Shown here piece after piece: positions 32,855 to 44,754 of a DNA stretch of 64,000 nt. A program made the position numbers and the translations under genes. Positions within the stretch are counted from its first letter, which is position 1. Each line of letters begins with the position of its first letter. The notes beneath the pieces were generated by a model. It had not been told where the DNA came from. It searched no databases and saw only the letters and a list, made by a program, of their open reading frames with translations. The stretch lies in assembly GCF_050920415.1 (NCBI RefSeq), contig NZ_CP169309.1. One strand, 5' to 3'. The DNA comes from Escherichia coli (GTDB lineage Bacteria; Pseudomonadota; Gammaproteobacteria; Enterobacterales; Enterobacteriaceae).

Positions 32855-34015
32855 ATGCACGTTACAGCCAAGCCCTCCAGTTTTCAATGTAATCTCAAAT
32901 GTGATTACTGTTTTTACCTTGAAAAAGAGTCGCAGTTTACTCATGAAAAATGGATGGATGACAGCACTCTGAAAGAGTTCATCAAACAATATATCGCAGC
33001 GTCTGGCAATCAGGTCTATTTTACCTGGCAAGGCGGTGAACCCACTCTGGCTGGCCTGGATTTTTTCCGTAAAGTTATTCACTATCAACAACGCTATGCA
33101 GGCCAAAAACGTATTTTTAATGCATTACAAACGAATGGCATTTTATTGAATAATGAATGGTGTGCCTTTCTCAAAGAACATGAGTTTCTGGTTGGTATCT
33201 CGATCGATGGACCCCAGGAGTTACATGACCGTTACAGACGCAGTAATTCGGGTAACGGAACTTTTGCAAAAGTGATAGCAGCCATCGAGCGTCTGAAATC
33301 ATATCAAGTAGAGTTTAATACGTTAACCGTCATTAATAACGTTAATGTCCATTACCCTCTTGAGGTTTATCATTTTTTAAAATCTATCGGCAGTAAACAT
33401 ATGCAATTTATCGAATTGCTCGAAACCGGGACGCCGAATATTGATTTCAGTGGTCATAGTGAGAACACATTCCGTATCATTGATTTTTCTGTGCCTCCTA
33501 CGGCTTATGGCAAGTTTATGTCAACCATTTTTATGCAATGGGTTAAAAACGATGTGGGTGAAATTTTCATCCGTCAGTTTGAAAGCTTTGTCAGCCGTTT
33601 TTTGGGGAATGGGCATACCAGTTGTATTTTCCAGGAGTCCTGCAAGGATAATCTGGTTGTTGAAAGTAATGGAGACATTTACGAATGCGACCATTTTGTC
33701 TATCCACAGTACAAAATCGGAAACATTAATAAATCGGAACTCAAAACGATGAACAGTGTACAGCTGACAGCGCAAAAAAAACGGATTTCAGCGAAATGTC
33801 AGCAATGTGTATATAAACCTATCTGCAATGGTGGTTGCCCTAAACATCGTATTACTAAAGTAAACAATGAAACTGTTTCCTATTTTTGCGAAGGTTATAA
33901 AATCCTTTTTTCAACCATGGTGCCTTATATGAACGCCATGGTGGAGTTAGCTAAGAACAGAGTTCCGCTTTACCACATTATGGATGTTGCAAAACAAATG
34001 GAGAATAATAAATAA
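32855..34015 (+). CDS. ydeM: Anaerobic sulfatase-maturating enzyme YdeM (radical SAM)
   Basis: Radical-SAM CxxxCxxC motif ([10 protein letters not shown]) and C-terminal Cys clusters; the ORF-track TTG start is replaced by the ATG at 32855. Confidence 0.85.
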
Positions 34016-34066
34016 CGCACTCTATTAGCTTCAGTCTTAGCCTCCTTCTTATGAACTTAACAAGGC

Positions 34067-34100
34067 ACCCGACATAACTTCCTGTCGGGTGTTTCGTCTT
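34067..34100 (+). terminator. Intrinsic terminator after ydeM
   Basis: 9-bp stem (cacccgaca / tgtcgggtg) followed by a T-rich tract. Confidence 0.5.
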
Positions 34101-34313
34101 CATCATCTTCCCGTGCGAAGTAAGAGCTTAAATCCTGGCTTACGAGGTATGCGTCAGGGCATTAGCAATACTCTTGATTATCAATAGCATAACCATAACC
34201 ACTGAAAATGAAATATTTCTTTATATTTCATATTGTTAAATGATACTTAAATAAATTTCATCAGTAAATCATTGCCATAGATAATCATTGAATGGCACAA
34301 TCAATTTTCGCTA

Positions 34314-35999
34314 ATGATAACCATTCCCATTACGTTTTGTATGTTGATAGCAAAGTATCTCTGTCTGCTGAAGCCCTTTTGGCTGCGTAAGAATAATAAA
34401 ACTTCAGTGTTGTTAATCATTATTATCCTCGCCATGATCCTTGGCGTGGTTAAAATTCAGGTCTGGTTAAACGACTGGAACAATGATTTTTTCAATGCGC
34501 TAAGTCAGAAAGAAACCGATAAACTTTGGCAACTTGTTCTGTGGTTCCCTGCCCTGCTGGGGATCTTTGTATTAATATCCGTAAACAAAACATGGCTAAT
34601 TAAACTACTGACTATTCGCTGGCGCGAATGGTTAACAGATTACTACCTTAATCGCTGGTTTGCAGATAAAAACTACTACTTCACGCAGATCTACGGCGAG
34701 CATAAAAATACAGATAACCCTGACCAACGTATCGCTGAAGACATTCTCTTACTGATCAGCAAAACGCTCAGCCTTTCATTTGGCTTCATCCAGTCACTGA
34801 GCATGCTGGTCACCTTCACCGTTATTCTTTGGCAAAGCGCGGGTACGCTCTCATTCACTGTTAGTGGAACAGAATGGAATATCCATGGGTATATGGTCTA
34901 TACCGTCGCGCTTATTGTGATCGGTGGAACATTATTTACCCATAAGGTTGGAAAACGCATTCGACCACTTAATGTGGAAAAGCAACGTAGCGAAGCGACA
35001 TTTCGAACTAATCTTGTGCAGCATAATAAACAAGCGGAACTGATTGCGCTAAGCAATGCTGAATCTCTACAACGGCAGGAGTTGAGCGACAATTTTCATA
35101 TCATTAAAGAGAACTGGCATCGTTTAATGAATCGCCAGCGGTGGCTTGATTACTGGCAGAATATTTATTCGCGCTCGCTTAGCGTTCTTCCCTACTTTCT
35201 GTTATTGCCGCAGTTTATTAGCGGACAGATCAATCTGGGCGGACTGATGAAATCACGCCAGGCATTTATGCTGGTATCGAACAATTTAAGCTGGTTTATT
35301 TATAAATATGATGAACTTGCTGAACTGGCTGCGGTTATCGATCGCTTGTATGAGTTCCATCAACTCACCGAACAGCGCCCTACGAATAAGCCTAAAAATT
35401 GCCAACATGCGGTACAAGTGGCTGACGCGAGTATTCGTACTCCTGATAATAAGATCATATTAGAGAACCTGAACTTTCATGTTTCGCCAGGCAAATGGCT
35501 ATTGCTGAAAGGTTACTCTGGTGCGGGAAAAACCACACTGCTTAAAACATTATCCCACTGCTGGCCGTGGTTTAAAGGTGATATTTCTTCTCCTGCTGAC
35601 AGTTGGTATGTGTCACAAACACCGTTAATCAAAACCGGCTTACTGAAAGAGATTATTTGTAAAGCACTTCCCCTGTCCGTAGACGATAAATCGTTGAGCG
35701 AAGTACTGCATCAGGTTGGTCTGGGGAAATTGGCTGCGCGTATTCATGATCACGATCGCTGGGGAGATATTCTTTCCAGCGGCGAAAAACAACGTATCGC
35801 CCTGGCTCGATTAATTTTACGACGTCCGAAATGGATATTTCTTGACGAAACTACCTCTCATCTTGAGGAACAAGAGGCTATCCGCTTACTGCGTTTAGTG
35901 CGTGAAAAACTACCCTCAAGCGGCGTCATTATGGTCACACATCAACCTGGTGTCTGGAGCCTGGCTGATGATATTTGCGACATTAGCGCGGTTTTATAA
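34314..35999 (+). CDS. yddA: YddA, fused ABC transporter permease/ATPase
   Basis: 561 aa; N-terminal transmembrane domain; C-terminal Walker A (GYSGAGKTT) and ABC signature (LSSGEKQR). Confidence 0.85.
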   Translation: MITIPITFCMLIAKYLCLLKPFWLRKNNKTSVLLIIIILAMILGVVKIQVWLNDWNNDFFNALSQKETDKLWQLVLWFPALLGIFVLISVNKTWLIKLLTIRWREWLTDYYLNRWFADKNYYFTQIYGEHKNTDNPDQRIAEDILLLISKTLSLSFGFIQSLSMLVTFTVILWQSAGTLSFTVSGTEWNIHGYMVYTVALIVIGGTLFTHKVGKRIRPLNVEKQRSEATFRTNLVQHNKQAELIALSNAESLQRQELSDNFHIIKENWHRLMNRQRWLDYWQNIYSRSLSVLPYFLLLPQFISGQINLGGLMKSRQAFMLVSNNLSWFIYKYDELAELAAVIDRLYEFHQLTEQRPTNKPKNCQHAVQVADASIRTPDNKIILENLNFHVSPGKWLLLKGYSGAGKTTLLKTLSHCWPWFKGDISSPADSWYVSQTPLIKTGLLKEIICKALPLSVDDKSLSEVLHQVGLGKLAARIHDHDRWGDILSSGEKQRIALARLILRRPKWIFLDETTSHLEEQEAIRLLRLVREKLPSSGVIMVTHQPGVWSLADDICDISAVL

Positions 36000-38453: not shown

Positions 38454-41249
38454 ATGGAGATAATTATGAGAAACCTCTGTTTCTTACTGACGTTAGTGGC
38501 AACTCTGTTGCTCCCCGGGCGACTGATTGCCGCCGCCTTACCGCAGGATGAAAAGTTAATTACCGGGCAACTGGACAATGGCTTGCGATACATGATTTAT
38601 CCGCATGCTCAACCAAAGGATCAGGTAAATTTATGGCTGCAAATTCATACCGGTTCATTGCAGGAAGAAGACAATGAGCGCGGTGTGGCTCATTTTGTAG
38701 AACATATGATGTTTAACGGCACAAAAACATGGCCGGGTAATAAAGTCATCGAAACATTTGAGTCAATGGGCCTGCGTTTTGGTCGCGATGTTAATGCCTA
38801 TACCAGCTATGACGAAACGGTGTACCAAGTAAGTTTGCCGACTACGCAGAAACAAAATCTGCAACAAGTGATGGCAATCTTCAGTGAATGGAGTAATGCC
38901 GCAACCTTTGAGAAACTTGAAGTAGACGCTGAACGCGGCGTAATTACTGAGGAATGGCGTGCATATCAGGATGCGAAATGGCGTACATCTCAGGCGCGCC
39001 GCCCTTTTCTTTTGGCAAATACACGTAATTTAGACCGTGAACCTATCGGCCTGATGGATACTGTTGCCACAGTCACACCGGCACAATTGCGCCAGTTTTA
39101 TCAACGCTGGTATCAACCCAATAATATGACCTTTATTGTGGTCGGCGATATCGACAGTAAAGAAGCGCTGGCGCTGATAAAGGATAATTTAAGTAAGCTC
39201 CCGGCTAACAAAGCAGCTGAAAATCGCGTCTGGCCGACAAAAGCCGAAAACCACCTGCGCTTTAATATCATTAATGATAAAGAAAACCGGGTGAACGGCA
39301 TCGCACTCTATTATCGCCTGCCAATGGTGCAAGTGAGCGATGAGCAAAGCTTTATCGAACAAGCTGAATGGAGCATGTTGGTTCAGCTGTTCAATCAACG
39401 TCTGCAGGAACGTATACAGTCGGGCGAGTTGAAGACTATTTCTGGTGGCACTGCGCGCAGCGTTAAAATTGCACCCGATTATCAGTCGCTGTTTTTCCGT
39501 GTAAATGCACGTGACAATAATATGCAGGATGCTGCGAATGCATTAATGGCAGAGTTGGCAACCCTCGATCAACATGGTTTTTCTGCTGAAGAACTCGACG
39601 ATGTTAAAACTACCCGCCTAACCTGGCTGAAAAATGCGGTTGATCAGCAAGCTGAACGCGATTTACGTATGCTGACCAGTCGCCTGGCGTCCAGCTCGTT
39701 AAATAATACGCCGTTCTTGTCGCCGGAAGAGACATACCAACTTTCGAAACGTCTGTGGCCGCAAATTACCGTGCAAAGTCTGGCGGAAAAATGGCAGCAG
39801 CTAAGAAAGAACCAGGACGCATTTTGGGAGCAAATGGTGAATAACGAGGTTGCAGCCAACAAAGCATTATCTCCTGCGGCTATCCTGGCGCTGGAAAAAG
39901 AGTACGCCAACAAAAAGCTGGCAGCTTACATCTTCCCTGGCAGAAATTTATCGTTAACAGTAGACGCTGACCCACAGGCGGAAATTAGCAGTAAAGAAAC
40001 ACTGGCTGAGAATCTGACATCATTAACACTTTCTAATGGTGCCAGGGTTATTCTGGCAAAATCAGCGGGTGAAGAGCAAAAGCTACAAATTATTGCCGTA
40101 TCTAATAAAGGTGATTTAAGTTTCCCTGCGCAGCAAAAATCACTTATCGCGCTGGCAAATAAAGCGGTGAGTGGCAGCGGCGTTGGTGATCTCTCCTCTT
40201 CCAGCCTGAAACGCTGGAGTGCGGAAAACTCGGTAACCATGAGCAGCAAAGTCAGTGGGCTGAATACGTTGCTCTCCGTGAGCGCGCGGGCTAATAATCC
40301 TGAACCTGGTTTCCAGTTGATTAACCAGCGAATCACTCACAGCACGATTAATGACAATATTTGGGCATCGCTACAAAATGCTCAAATTCAGGCGTTGAAA
40401 ACGCTCGACCAGCGTCCAGCAGAGAAATTCGCCCAGCAGATGTATGAGAAGCGCTATGCTGATGACCGTACGAAATTACTGCAAGAAAAACAGATTGCAC
40501 AATTTACTGCCGCAGACGCGCTGGCAGCCGATCGCCAGTTATTTTCATCTCCAGCGGATATCACGTTTGTCGTTGTCGGTAATGTCGCAGAAGACAAACT
40601 TCTGCCGTTAATTACGCGTTACTTAGGATCAATAAAACACTCTGATTCGCCATTAGCCGCAGGTAAACCATTAACTCGCGCGACGGACAACGCATCGGTT
40701 ACAGTAAAAGAACAAAATGAACCTGTGGCACAGGTTTCACAGTGGAATCGTTATGATTCCCGGACACCTGTAAATCTGGAGACGCGTATGGCGCTGGATG
40801 CCTTTAACGTTGCCCTGGCTAAAGATCTGCGCATTAATATTCGTGAACAGGCATCTGGGGCATACAGCGTTTCTTCTCGCCTCTCGGTTGATCCTCAGGC
40901 CAAAGATATCACCCATTTGCTGGCTTTTACTTGTCAACCAGAACGGCATGAAGAACTGTTAGCGTTAGCGAATGAAGTGATGGTTAAGCGTCTGGCTAAA
41001 GGGATCAGAAAGCAAGAACTGAACGAATACCAGCAAAACGTTCAGCGTAGCCTCGATATCCAACAGCGTAGCGTTCAACAATTAGCGAACACCATTGTAA
41101 ATAGTCTTATTCAATATGACGATCCTGCCGCATGGACTGCGCAGGAGCAATTATTGAAACAAATGACGGTAGATAATGTTAACACTACGGTTAAACAATA
41201 TCTTTCTCATCCGGTGAATACCTTTACCGGAGTATTACTACCAAAATAA
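38454..41249 (+). CDS. pqqL: PqqL, periplasmic M16-family zinc peptidase
   Basis: 931 aa; signal peptide; inverted zinc-binding motif HFVEH. The start could instead be the ATG at 38466. Confidence 0.85.
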   Translation: MEIIMRNLCFLLTLVATLLLPGRLIAAALPQDEKLITGQLDNGLRYMIYPHAQPKDQVNLWLQIHTGSLQEEDNERGVAHFVEHMMFNGTKTWPGNKVIETFESMGLRFGRDVNAYTSYDETVYQVSLPTTQKQNLQQVMAIFSEWSNAATFEKLEVDAERGVITEEWRAYQDAKWRTSQARRPFLLANTRNLDREPIGLMDTVATVTPAQLRQFYQRWYQPNNMTFIVVGDIDSKEALALIKDNLSKLPANKAAENRVWPTKAENHLRFNIINDKENRVNGIALYYRLPMVQVSDEQSFIEQAEWSMLVQLFNQRLQERIQSGELKTISGGTARSVKIAPDYQSLFFRVNARDNNMQDAANALMAELATLDQHGFSAEELDDVKTTRLTWLKNAVDQQAERDLRMLTSRLASSSLNNTPFLSPEETYQLSKRLWPQITVQSLAEKWQQLRKNQDAFWEQMVNNEVAANKALSPAAILALEKEYANKKLAAYIFPGRNLSLTVDADPQAEISSKETLAENLTSLTLSNGARVILAKSAGEEQKLQIIAVSNKGDLSFPAQQKSLIALANKAVSGSGVGDLSSSSLKRWSAENSVTMSSKVSGLNTLLSVSARANNPEPGFQLINQRITHSTINDNIWASLQNAQIQALKTLDQRPAEKFAQQMYEKRYADDRTKLLQEKQIAQFTAADALAADRQLFSSPADITFVVVGNVAEDKLLPLITRYLGSIKHSDSPLAAGKPLTRATDNASVTVKEQNEPVAQVSQWNRYDSRTPVNLETRMALDAFNVALAKDLRINIREQASGAYSVSSRLSVDPQAKDITHLLAFTCQPERHEELLALANEVMVKRLAKGIRKQELNEYQQNVQRSLDIQQRSVQQLANTIVNSLIQYDDPAAWTAQEQLLKQMTVDNVNTTVKQYLSHPVNTFTGVLLPK

Positions 41250-41255
41250 TGACGT

Positions 41256-41286
41256 CCCCCGTCAACATATCGTTGGCGGGGGTTTT
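41256..41286 (+). terminator. Intrinsic terminator after pqqL
   Basis: GC-rich hairpin (cccccgtcaac...gttggcggggg) followed by TTTT. Confidence 0.55.
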
Positions 41287-41510
41287 AGCAACAGACGTTA
41301 TTTTATATAATAATTTTATGAATGCGTTCAAAATAACAACCGAGTACTAATAATGATATTTTAAGGGCTAATTTTTATGTGATAATTCACCAGAGTTAGA
41401 AAGCGCGTCAAAATAATGACATACAACACCACACTACAATCCATAACACCCTACGCTATTGTTTTTTAACGTAAATATATTTTTCCCATAATATCTCACG
41501 ATAAATAACA

Positions 41511-41530
41511 TTAGGATTTTGTTATTTAAA
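41511..41530. promoter_or_regulatory. gad box (GadE binding site) upstream of gadBC
   Basis: ttaggattttgttatttaaa, the conserved 20-bp gad box, about 80 bp upstream of the gadB start. Confidence 0.65.
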
Positions 41531-41609
41531 CACAAGACCTTTGCACTTGCTTACTTTATCGATAAATCCTACTTTTTTAATGCGATCCAATCATTTTAAG
41601 GAGTTTAAA

Positions 41610-43010
41610 ATGGATAAGAAGCAAGTAACGGATTTAAGGTCGGAATTACTCGATTCACGTTTTGGCGCTAAGTCTATTTCCACTATTGCAGAATCAAAAC
41701 GATTTCCGCTGCACGAAATGCGCGATGATGTCGCATTCCAGATTATCAATGATGAGTTATATCTTGATGGCAACGCTCGTCAGAATCTGGCAACGTTCTG
41801 CCAGACCTGGGACGACGAAAATGTCCATAAGTTGATGGATTTATCCATTAACAAAAACTGGATCGACAAAGAAGAATATCCGCAATCTGCAGCAATCGAT
41901 CTGCGTTGCGTAAACATGGTTGCCGATCTGTGGCATGCGCCTGCACCGAAAAATGGTCAGGCCGTTGGCACCAACACCATTGGTTCTTCCGAGGCCTGTA
42001 TGCTCGGCGGGATGGCGATGAAATGGCGTTGGCGCAAGCGTATGGAAGCTGCAGGTAAGCCGACTAACAAACCGAACCTGGTGTGCGGTCCGGTACAAAT
42101 CTGCTGGCATAAATTCGCCCGCTACTGGGATGTGGAGTTGCGTGAGATCCCTATGCGCCCCGGTCAGTTGTTTATGGACCCGAAACGCATGATTGAAGCC
42201 TGCGACGAAAACACTATCGGCGTGGTGCCGACTTTCGGCGTGACCTATACCGGTAACTATGAGTTCCCGCAACCGCTGCACGATGCACTGGATAAATTCC
42301 AGGCCGACACCGGTATCGACATCGACATGCACATCGACGCCGCCAGCGGTGGCTTCCTGGCACCGTTCGTCGCCCCGGATATCGTCTGGGACTTCCGCCT
42401 GCCGCGTGTGAAATCGATCAGTGCTTCAGGCCACAAATTCGGTCTGGCTCCGCTGGGCTGCGGCTGGGTTATCTGGCGTGACGAAGAAGCGCTGCCGCAG
42501 GAACTGGTATTCAACGTTGACTACCTCGGTGGTCAGATTGGGACTTTCGCCATCAACTTCTCCCGTCCGGCAGGCCAGGTGATTGCACAATACTATGAGT
42601 TTCTGCGCCTCGGTCGTGAAGGCTATACCAAAGTACAGAACGCCTCCTACCAGGTTGCCGCTTATCTGGCGGATGAAATCGCCAAACTGGGGCCGTATGA
42701 GTTCATCTGTACGGGTCGCCCGGACGAAGGCATCCCGGCGGTTTGCTTCAAACTGAAAGATGGTGAAGATCCGGGATACACCCTGTATGACCTCTCTGAA
42801 CGTCTGCGTCTGCGCGGCTGGCAGGTTCCGGCTTTCACTCTCGGCGGTGAAGCCACTGACATCGTGGTGATGCGCATTATGTGCCGTCGTGGCTTCGAAA
42901 TGGACTTTGCTGAACTGTTGCTGGAAGACTACAAAGCCTCCCTGAAATATCTCAGCGACCACCCGAAACTGCAGGGTATTGCCCAGCAGAACAGCTTTAA
43001 ACACACCTGA
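41610..43010 (+). CDS. gadB: Glutamate decarboxylase beta
   Basis: 466 aa from the internal ATG ([24 protein letters not shown]...); PLP-lysine region [10 protein letters not shown]; followed by gadC. Confidence 0.95.
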
Positions 43011-43165
43011 TAACGTTGAACGGTAACGGTGTCCCGAAACGAACCCGTTTCGGGACAATTTCCAAAGTCTGTTCACTGGCATTAGCAACGGAAAATATTG
43101 TTCTGAATACGCTTCAGAACAAAACAGGTGCGGTTCCGACAGGAATACCGTTTTAGGGGGATAAT

Positions 43166-44701
43166 ATGGCTACATCAGTACAGACAGGTAAAGCTAAGCA
43201 GCTCACATTACTCGGATTTTTTGCCATAACGGCATCGATGGTAATGGCTGTTTATGAATACCCTACCTTCGCAACATCGGGCTTTTCATTAGTCTTCTTC
43301 CTGCTTTTAGGCGGGATTTTATGGTTTATTCCCGTGGGGCTTTGTGCTGCGGAAATGGCCACCGTCGACGGCTGGGAAGAAGGTGGTGTCTTCGCCTGGG
43401 TATCAAATACTCTGGGGCCGAGATGGGGGTTTGCAGCGATCTCATTTGGCTATCTGCAAATCGCCATCGGTTTTATTCCAATGCTCTATTTCGTGTTAGG
43501 GGCACTCTCCTACATCCTGAAATGGCCAGCGTTGAATGAAGACCCCATTACCAAAACTATTGCAGCACTCATCATTCTTTGGGCGCTGGCATTAACACAG
43601 TTTGGTGGCACGAAATACACGGCGCGAATTGCTAAAGTTGGCTTCTTCGCCGGTATCCTGTTACCTGCATTTATTTTGATCGCATTAGCAGCTATTTATC
43701 TGCACTCCGGTGCTCCCGTTGCTATCGAAATGGATGCGAAAACCTTCTTCCCTGACTTCTCTAAAGTCGGCACCCTGGTTGTGTTTGTTGCCTTCATTTT
43801 GAGTTATATGGGGGTAGAAGCTTCCGCAACCCACGTCAATGAAATGCGCAATCCCGGTCGCGATTATCCGCTGGCGATGTTACTGCTGATGGTGGCGGCA
43901 ATCTGCTTAAGCTCTGTTGGCGGCTTGTCTATTGCGATGGTTATTCCGGGTAATGAAATCAACCTCTCCGCAGGGGTAATGCAAACCTTTACCGTTCTGA
44001 TGTCACATGTGGCACCGGAAATTGAGTGGACGGTTCGCGTGATCTCCGCACTGCTGTTGCTGGGTGTTCTGGCGGAAATCGCTTCCTGGATTGTTGGCCC
44101 TTCTCGCGGGATGTATGTCACCGCGCAGAAAAACCTGCTGCCAGCGGCGTTCGCTAAAATGAACAAAAATGGCGTACCGGTAACGCTGGTTATTTCGCAG
44201 CTGGTGATTACTACTATCGCGTTGATCATCCTCACCAATACCGGTGGCGGTAACAATATGTCCTTCCTGATTGCCCTGGCGCTGACGGTGGTGATTTATC
44301 TGTGTGCTTATTTCATGCTGTTTATTGGCTACATTGTGTTAGTGCTTAAACATCCTGACTTAAAACGCACATTTAATATCCCTGGTGGTAAAGGGGTGAA
44401 ACTGGTCGTGGCAATTGTCGGTCTGCTGACTTCAATTATGGCGTTTATTGTTTCCTTCCTGCCGCCGGATAATATCCAGGGGGACTCTACCGATATGTAT
44501 GTCGAATTACTGGTCGTTAGTTTCCTGGTGGTACTTGCCCTGCCCTTCATTCTCTATGCTGTTCATGATCGTAAAGGCAAAGCGAATACCGGCGTATCTC
44601 TGGAACCAATCAACAGCCAGAACGCTCCGAAAGGTCACTTCTTCCTGCACCCGCGTGCACGTTCACCACACTATATTGTGATGAATGACAAGAAACACTA
44701 A
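43166..44701 (+). CDS. gadC: Glutamate:GABA antiporter
   Basis: 511 aa; 12-TM APC-family transporter; downstream of gadB. Confidence 0.95.
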
Positions 44702-44727
44702 CCATGTCTGAATGGTTATAAGACAAG

Positions 44728-44754
44728 GGAGCGATAATTCATCGCTCCCTTTTT
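44728..44754 (+). terminator. Intrinsic terminator after gadC
   Basis: Hairpin gggagcg...cgctccc followed by TTTTT. Confidence 0.6.

Follow-up and report, generated by a model that had tools for sequence, protein, structure and literature searches.

The 20 bp at positions 41511-41530 (+ strand) of the window, by which we mean the whole 64,000-nucleotide stretch of Escherichia coli DNA analysed here, very probably constitute the canonical GAD box of the gadBC promoter, the activator site for GadE-RcsB. The sequence reads exactly TTAGGATTTTGTTATTTAAA, and it is the single match in 64 kb when both strands are searched with up to three mismatches tolerated; at the same tolerance, none of 100 dinucleotide-preserving shuffles of the window contained a match. 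An exact 20-bp gad box had been placed here by the first-pass annotation, which proposed alignment with the gadA and gadB promoters as a check. That alignment has now been run: the coordinates are exact, the window, K-12 MG1655 gadB and K-12 MG1655 gadA carry the same base at 20/20 positions, and no mismatch to the characterised element was seen. The feature is thus already known, and we regard its confirmation as ordinary. The GAD box of the K-12 gadBC promoter was reportedly described by Castanie-Cornet & Foster (2001) and Ma et al. (2003), and it is also the subject of Castanie-Cornet et al. (2010; PMC2887963).

The GadE site has been written 'TTAGGAttTTgTTATTTAAa' (PMC4918353), and the window box agrees with it at all 20 positions. 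In published work the GAD box is a 20-bp consensus whose centre lies 63 bp before the transcription starts of gadA and gadBC, with 16 bp between it and the -35 element in gadA and gadB (PMC2887963). The window shows the second of these distances, as the box ends at 41530 and the -35 element begins at 41547, leaving 16 bp between them. The box starts 99 nt upstream of the gadB ATG and ends 79 nt before it. A second description of GadE binding, the ChIP-exo motif TTARGAWWWWAAATA, has no match in the window at up to one mismatch, the box included; we attribute this to a motif that only loosely resembles the classical site, and not to a defect in the box.

Anatomy of the gadB promoter

Downstream of the box, the remaining promoter elements lie on the + strand in the expected order. 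The -35 hexamer TTGCTT (41547-41552), read from sequence, is the same in K-12 gadB and gadA, and a 17-bp spacer separates it from the -10 hexamer TACTTT (41570-41575). The 3' part of this spacer is the RcsB box, CGATAAATCC..., which in full reads CGATAAATCCTAC (41560-41573, limits approximate), abuts and overlaps the -10 hexamer and matches that of K-12 gadB throughout. Relative to its gadA counterpart there is a single change, C for G at the left end, the very difference that has been described between the gadB and gadA RcsB boxes (PMC2887963). In gadA, this box is a site of repression at high RcsB activity (PMC2887963). The Shine-Dalgarno sequence of gadB, AAGGAG (41598-41603, likewise read from sequence), is invariant in 17/17 gadA and gadB promoters compared. 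Transcription of gadB would begin at about 41583-41584, 7-8 nt after the -10 hexamer, if the start is placed from a box centre at -63.

The gadB hexamers match 3+3 of the 12 sigma-70 consensus positions, and a sigma-70 consensus scan of the window did not list the gadB promoter. Weak hexamers that such a scan passes over point to a promoter that depends on an activator, rather than to the absence of a promoter. A 489-aa, TTG-initiated open reading frame in the program-made list is merely an upstream extension of the gadB frame. A search of the whole window against Rfam at gathering thresholds found no RNA family.

The K-12 gadBC promoter shares with the window the 20-bp box, the -35 hexamer, the RcsB box, the -10 hexamer, the 5' leader and the Shine-Dalgarno sequence, and in both genomes gadB-gadC lies between yddA-yddB-pqqL and digH-dosC-dosP. 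From the box to the ATG, 2 of 79 bases differ, both of them in the 16 bp that separate the box from the -35 hexamer (CACAAGACC versus CACGAGTCC), and these two substitutions are still the only differences when the comparison begins at about 41489. The two promoters part company farther out, with ~20% divergence over the ~220 bp that precede the box. The gadA promoter of the acid fitness island likewise has the same 20 bp, the same 16-bp distance to the -35 hexamer and the same -10 hexamer. Unlike gadB of the window, however, it has a spacer with 3/16 positions in common, an RcsB box that starts with G and not C, and unrelated upstream DNA, and the gene downstream of it is followed by gadX, not gadC.

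Intact gadB and gadC with their own terminator

The genes served by this promoter are complete. At 41610-43010 (+), gadB encodes a glutamate decarboxylase of 466 aa that is identical to K-12 GadB at 465/466 positions and scores 691.6 bits against the NCBIfam equivalog TIGR01788 (cut-off 380.4); the near-identical record of strain MFDS1022581 also names the gene gadB. At 43166-44701 (+), gadC encodes a glutamate/GABA antiporter of 511 aa, identical to K-12 GadC at 507/511 positions and scoring 1024.5 bits against the NCBIfam equivalog TIGR00910 (cut-off 673.5). The two genes stand in tandem on one strand, uninterrupted and 99% identical to K-12. At their third codon positions the identity is 89-90%, and this contrast with 99% at the protein level indicates strong purifying selection on GadB and GadC.

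An intrinsic terminator follows at 44725-44754 (+), 24 nt past the gadC stop codon, with a sequence identical to that of K-12. Its arms, AAGGGAGCGAT and ATCGCTCCCTT, pair perfectly over 11 bp as an inverted repeat (44725-44735 with 44741-44751, 100% complementary), a T-run occupies 44750-44754, and the predicted fold has a free energy of -18.1 kcal/mol (z = -5.1). A pattern scan for terminators did not list this element, which was recovered by an inverted-repeat search and folding; it escaped the scan since two T of the run are paired within the stem. The first-pass claim that gadBC are intact and have a terminator of their own is therefore borne out, by full-length reading frames of 466 and 511 aa that both score above their equivalog cut-offs and by the 11-bp stem with its run of five T.

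The spacer between the two genes is itself conserved. Over 43011-43165 it is 99.4% identical to K-12, far above the synonymous sites (89-90%), and it is 91% identical to strain E69, for which the third-position identity is 76-77%. Two strong stem-loops lie within it, at 43030-43057 and 43098-43122. The first (+ strand) has a 12-bp stem and a predicted fold of -21.1 kcal/mol (z = -4.7) without a good U-tract, and is possibly a partial terminator or a stabiliser of the mRNA. The conservation suggests that this spacer is under constraint as RNA; it may act as a partial terminator, be a site of processing or control the translation of gadC.

Conservation of the box

Of 5426 complete E. coli genomes, 5372 have the 45-mer that surrounds the box, 41489-41533, at 95% identity or more, and in 3306 records the identity is 99% or more. 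Where imperfect matches were sampled, the differences lay outside the 20-bp box in 5/5.

We also searched for the exact 20-mer in one genome per species, across 100,044 species and 298 Gb. This species sample was gathered by exact match, and invariance within it is therefore given by construction, with lineages that carry altered boxes invisible to it. The search returned 11 loci, 8 of them in Escherichia: gadA of E. albertii, gadA of E. whittamii, and both gadA and gadB in E69, E1V33 and SCPM-O-B-8794. Every one of the eight Escherichia boxes lies 79-80 nt upstream of the start codon of a gadA-type (MDQKLL/MEQKLL) or gadB-type (MDKKQV) gene. The three remaining loci are on metagenome-assembled contigs, one from Lentisphaeria and two from Bacteroidales, with one copy each. 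They were considered as GAD boxes and rejected, as no gad gene lies downstream; we put them down to chance, the word being AT-rich and the search space 298 Gb.

The box does not vary in any Escherichia gadA or gadB promoter examined, although its flanks are highly variable; in the 16 bp that follow it, 3/16 positions are common to gadA and gadB. An invariant 20-bp box between fast-evolving flanks may be read as a clean natural footprint of the GadE-RcsB site, and is of modest comparative interest.

A rare allele upstream of the box

The gadBC regulatory region is bounded upstream by the intrinsic terminator of pqqL at 41256-41286 (+), whose hairpin (41256-41282; 11-bp stem, 5-nt loop; -21.3 kcal/mol, z = -4.0) is followed by TTTT. 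It lies just beyond the end of the 931-aa pqqL reading frame at 41249. Between this terminator and the box runs an AT-rich stretch of ~220 bp. Identity to K-12 is 79% over 41250-41500, set against 95.6% for the 14-kb neighbourhood; taken over 41290-41480, the AT-rich DNA is again 79% identical and the flanking genes ~96%. A 401-bp query covering the pqqL-gadB intergenic region is matched at 90% identity or more in 14 of 5,407 matching E. coli records, and at 80-90% in the remaining 5,393. Over the 262 bp that precede the box, mainstream E. coli strains share 86-94% identity with one another and 79-81% with the window; against E69 and E1V33 the figure is ~70%. Judged by these comparisons, the ~220 bp ahead of the box represent a rare, ~20%-diverged allele at the locus of a rare lineage, and it is the only mildly unusual feature of the region.

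This DNA also holds the best candidate for a GadX/GadW site. The GadX/GadW motif derived from ChIP-exo is AKGKCTGWTWTTWWYMYVAK (PMC4918353). The candidate, AGGGCTAATTTTTATGTGAT at 41364-41383 (+), has two mismatches to it and lies ~130 bp upstream of the box. Two matches at this level occur in the window, where 0.32 would be expected. The other, at 29022-29041, falls inside the ydeP coding sequence and is probably a chance match, given the same expectation of 0.32 per window. Five Escherichia gadB promoters share the core of the candidate site, CT-ATTTT-A-GTGATAAT, without change. GadX/GadW binding sites were reportedly characterised by Tramonti et al. (2006, 2008). Sites of this kind, of which 41364-41383 would be the local example, have the promoter region and the acid-resistance regulon in common with the GAD box. 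They differ from it in consensus, in being sites for AraC-type regulators and in lying further upstream.

It is conceivable, though unlikely, that the auxiliary GadX, GadW and H-NS inputs to gadBC, which in K-12 act on this upstream DNA, have been rewired in this lineage while the master GadE input was preserved. Against this, hypervariability of the region extends to the whole genus, and the best GadX/GadW-like core is still present. Lineage-wide divergence of a hypervariable spacer suffices to explain the upstream allele. We also considered the import of this segment from another Escherichia species: the allele is about equally far from mainstream E. coli and from the other lineages sampled. 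These equal distances, together with an acid fitness island in MFDS1022581 that is 96.5% identical to K-12, mean that general divergence of the lineage explains the allele as well as import does. The rare gadB-upstream allele is shared by strain EC42405, in which yddA is replaced by genes for a recombinase-family protein and a methyl-accepting chemotaxis protein (locus L001, positions 1-2750); unlike EC42405, the window, compared over 33645-35849, keeps yddA as in K-12.

Regulators in a near-identical genome

Neither gadE nor rcsB lies inside the window, and their presence was checked by proxy in the near-identical MFDS1022581 chromosome (NZ_CP169399.1), from which the window differs over 64 kb by 5 SNPs, 3 one-base indels and one IS2 copy. 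MFDS1022581 comes from animal-source food in South Korea. Its acid fitness island is complete, with gadA, gadX, gadW, mdtEF, gadE, hdeD/A/B, yhiD, dctR and slp; its GadE is identical to that of K-12 at 175/175 positions, and its gadA promoter has the same exact box (positions 3980-3999 of locus L005). The genes rcsD, rcsB and rcsC are present as well.

The window itself contains the EvgA-regulon genes ydeP, safA and ydeO, at ~27.2-30.7 kb. YdeO, a regulator of the AraC type, activates gadE within the EvgA-YdeO-GadE cascade. In the window, ydeO (29962-30723) is intact and encodes 253 aa, 245/252 of them identical to K-12; in the MFDS1022581 annotation it is frameshifted, the difference being one A missing from an A-run (30571-30575 in the window). 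The frameshift in that record is possibly an assembly error. A broken EvgA-YdeO-GadE branch was considered and ruled out for the window on the strength of its intact reading frame.

Probable activation by GadE-RcsB and the alternatives

Glutamate-dependent acid resistance is what enables E. coli to pass through the stomach alive. The role of the K-12 gadA box in this system has been established by electrophoretic mobility shift assays, footprinting and lacZ fusions (PMC2887963). The GadE-RcsB heterodimer binds the GAD box in vitro and GadE alone does not; GadE and RcsB together protect -50 to -76 in gadA, a region that includes the box; and a G-to-C change in the box abolishes both binding and activation (PMC2887963). 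TTAGGA, the left half of the box, is similar to an RcsB half-site of the kind found in the RcsB and RcsAB boxes of the Rcs regulon, and RcsB is the obligatory partner of GadE at this site (PMC2887963). Unlike the Rcs boxes, the GAD box lacks symmetry and requires GadE for the second subunit, and RcsB alone protects only the separate box beside the -10 hexamer (PMC2887963).

From these K-12 experiments we infer that the window box would be bound and would activate transcription in the present strain, and that transcription would start at the corresponding position. In acid or in stationary phase, the LuxR-type protein GadE and the response regulator RcsB would bind the 20-bp asymmetric site as a heterodimer and, from ~63 bp upstream of the start, activate an intrinsically weak promoter (TTGCTT, 17 bp, TACTTT). 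The resulting gadB-gadC transcript would end at the hairpin and T-run past gadC. GadB would then decarboxylate glutamate, consuming a proton, and GadC would exchange the GABA product for external glutamate. Highly active RcsB would repress the promoter through the second site beside the -10 hexamer, and the GadX/GadW and H-NS inputs would act on the AT-rich upstream DNA. If so, this E. coli carries a complete, canonically wired operon for glutamate-dependent acid resistance, which matters little beyond correct annotation.

The first-pass annotation had called the element GadE/GadX-responsive. The GadE part of that label stands, as a site for the GadE-RcsB heterodimer; the main routes by which GadX and GadW act are other sites upstream and gadE. 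A more radical version of the GadX part is that the box serves mainly as an operator at which the AraC-type proteins GadX and GadW compete or repress, rather than as an activator site for GadE-RcsB. Secondary literature does state that GadW and GadX can repress by competitive binding of the gad box (PMC6128205). However, the GadX/GadW consensus, AtGtcTGATtTttatattat, differs from the box (PMC4918353), and the model figure of the footprinting study, which reports the GadE and RcsB protection, draws the GadXW, GAD and RcsB boxes as separate elements (PMC2887963). In the window, moreover, the best GadX/GadW-like sequence is the candidate ~130 bp upstream of the box. We consider a predominantly GadX/GadW operator very improbable; these proteins could have a role at the box alongside activation by GadE-RcsB, rather than instead of it.

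Exact preservation of a 20-mer could also have a cause other than selection on regulator binding. The gadA and gadB genes are duplicates, and when the window is compared with the K-12 gadA locus, the BLAST homology (41511-43014, 94.2%) begins at the first base of the box, as it would if the 20-mer were kept only as a by-product of duplication and gene conversion and had no regulatory role of its own here. Yet within the same segment the next 16 bp have only 3/16 positions in common between gadA and gadB, and the box is exact; a spacer that has diverged inside the duplicated segment indicates that conversion is not homogenising the promoter. The K-12 mutational and footprinting data, which show the box to be required for activation, also speak against this explanation, and it strikes us as extremely improbable. 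The box might instead be an intact relic of a disabled circuit, in which a regulator has been lost or silencing has been altered by the diverged upstream DNA. The 79-81% identity of the 262 bp before the box to mainstream E. coli, the rarity of the allele and the frameshift annotated in ydeO of the closest record would fit such a history. Set against them are the intact ydeO frame of the window; gadE, gadX, gadW, gadA and rcsB, all annotated intact in MFDS1022581, with GadE 100% identical to K-12; and the purifying selection on GadB and GadC. We give a disabled circuit next to no weight, and retain the reading of an active GadE-RcsB site.

Other observations in the window

The gadA/gadB homology ends 4 nt past the gadB stop codon, and the box marks the other edge of the duplicated segment. 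The IS2 copy of MFDS1022581 (~1.33 kb) is absent from the window at ~14728-14733. Nearby, between hipBA and a fimbrial operon, lies a small island with IS and HTH pseudogene fragments at its flanks; two repeat proteins are encoded on it. One protein (15044-16651, - strand) is a leucine-rich-repeat protein of 535 aa, with ~12 tandem 60-nt (20-aa) repeats from 15179; its gene also contains a 9-nt repeat in seven copies at 16429-16491, where 2 of the 5 SNPs relative to MFDS1022581 are found. The other (17353-19308, + strand) is an ankyrin-repeat protein of 651 aa.
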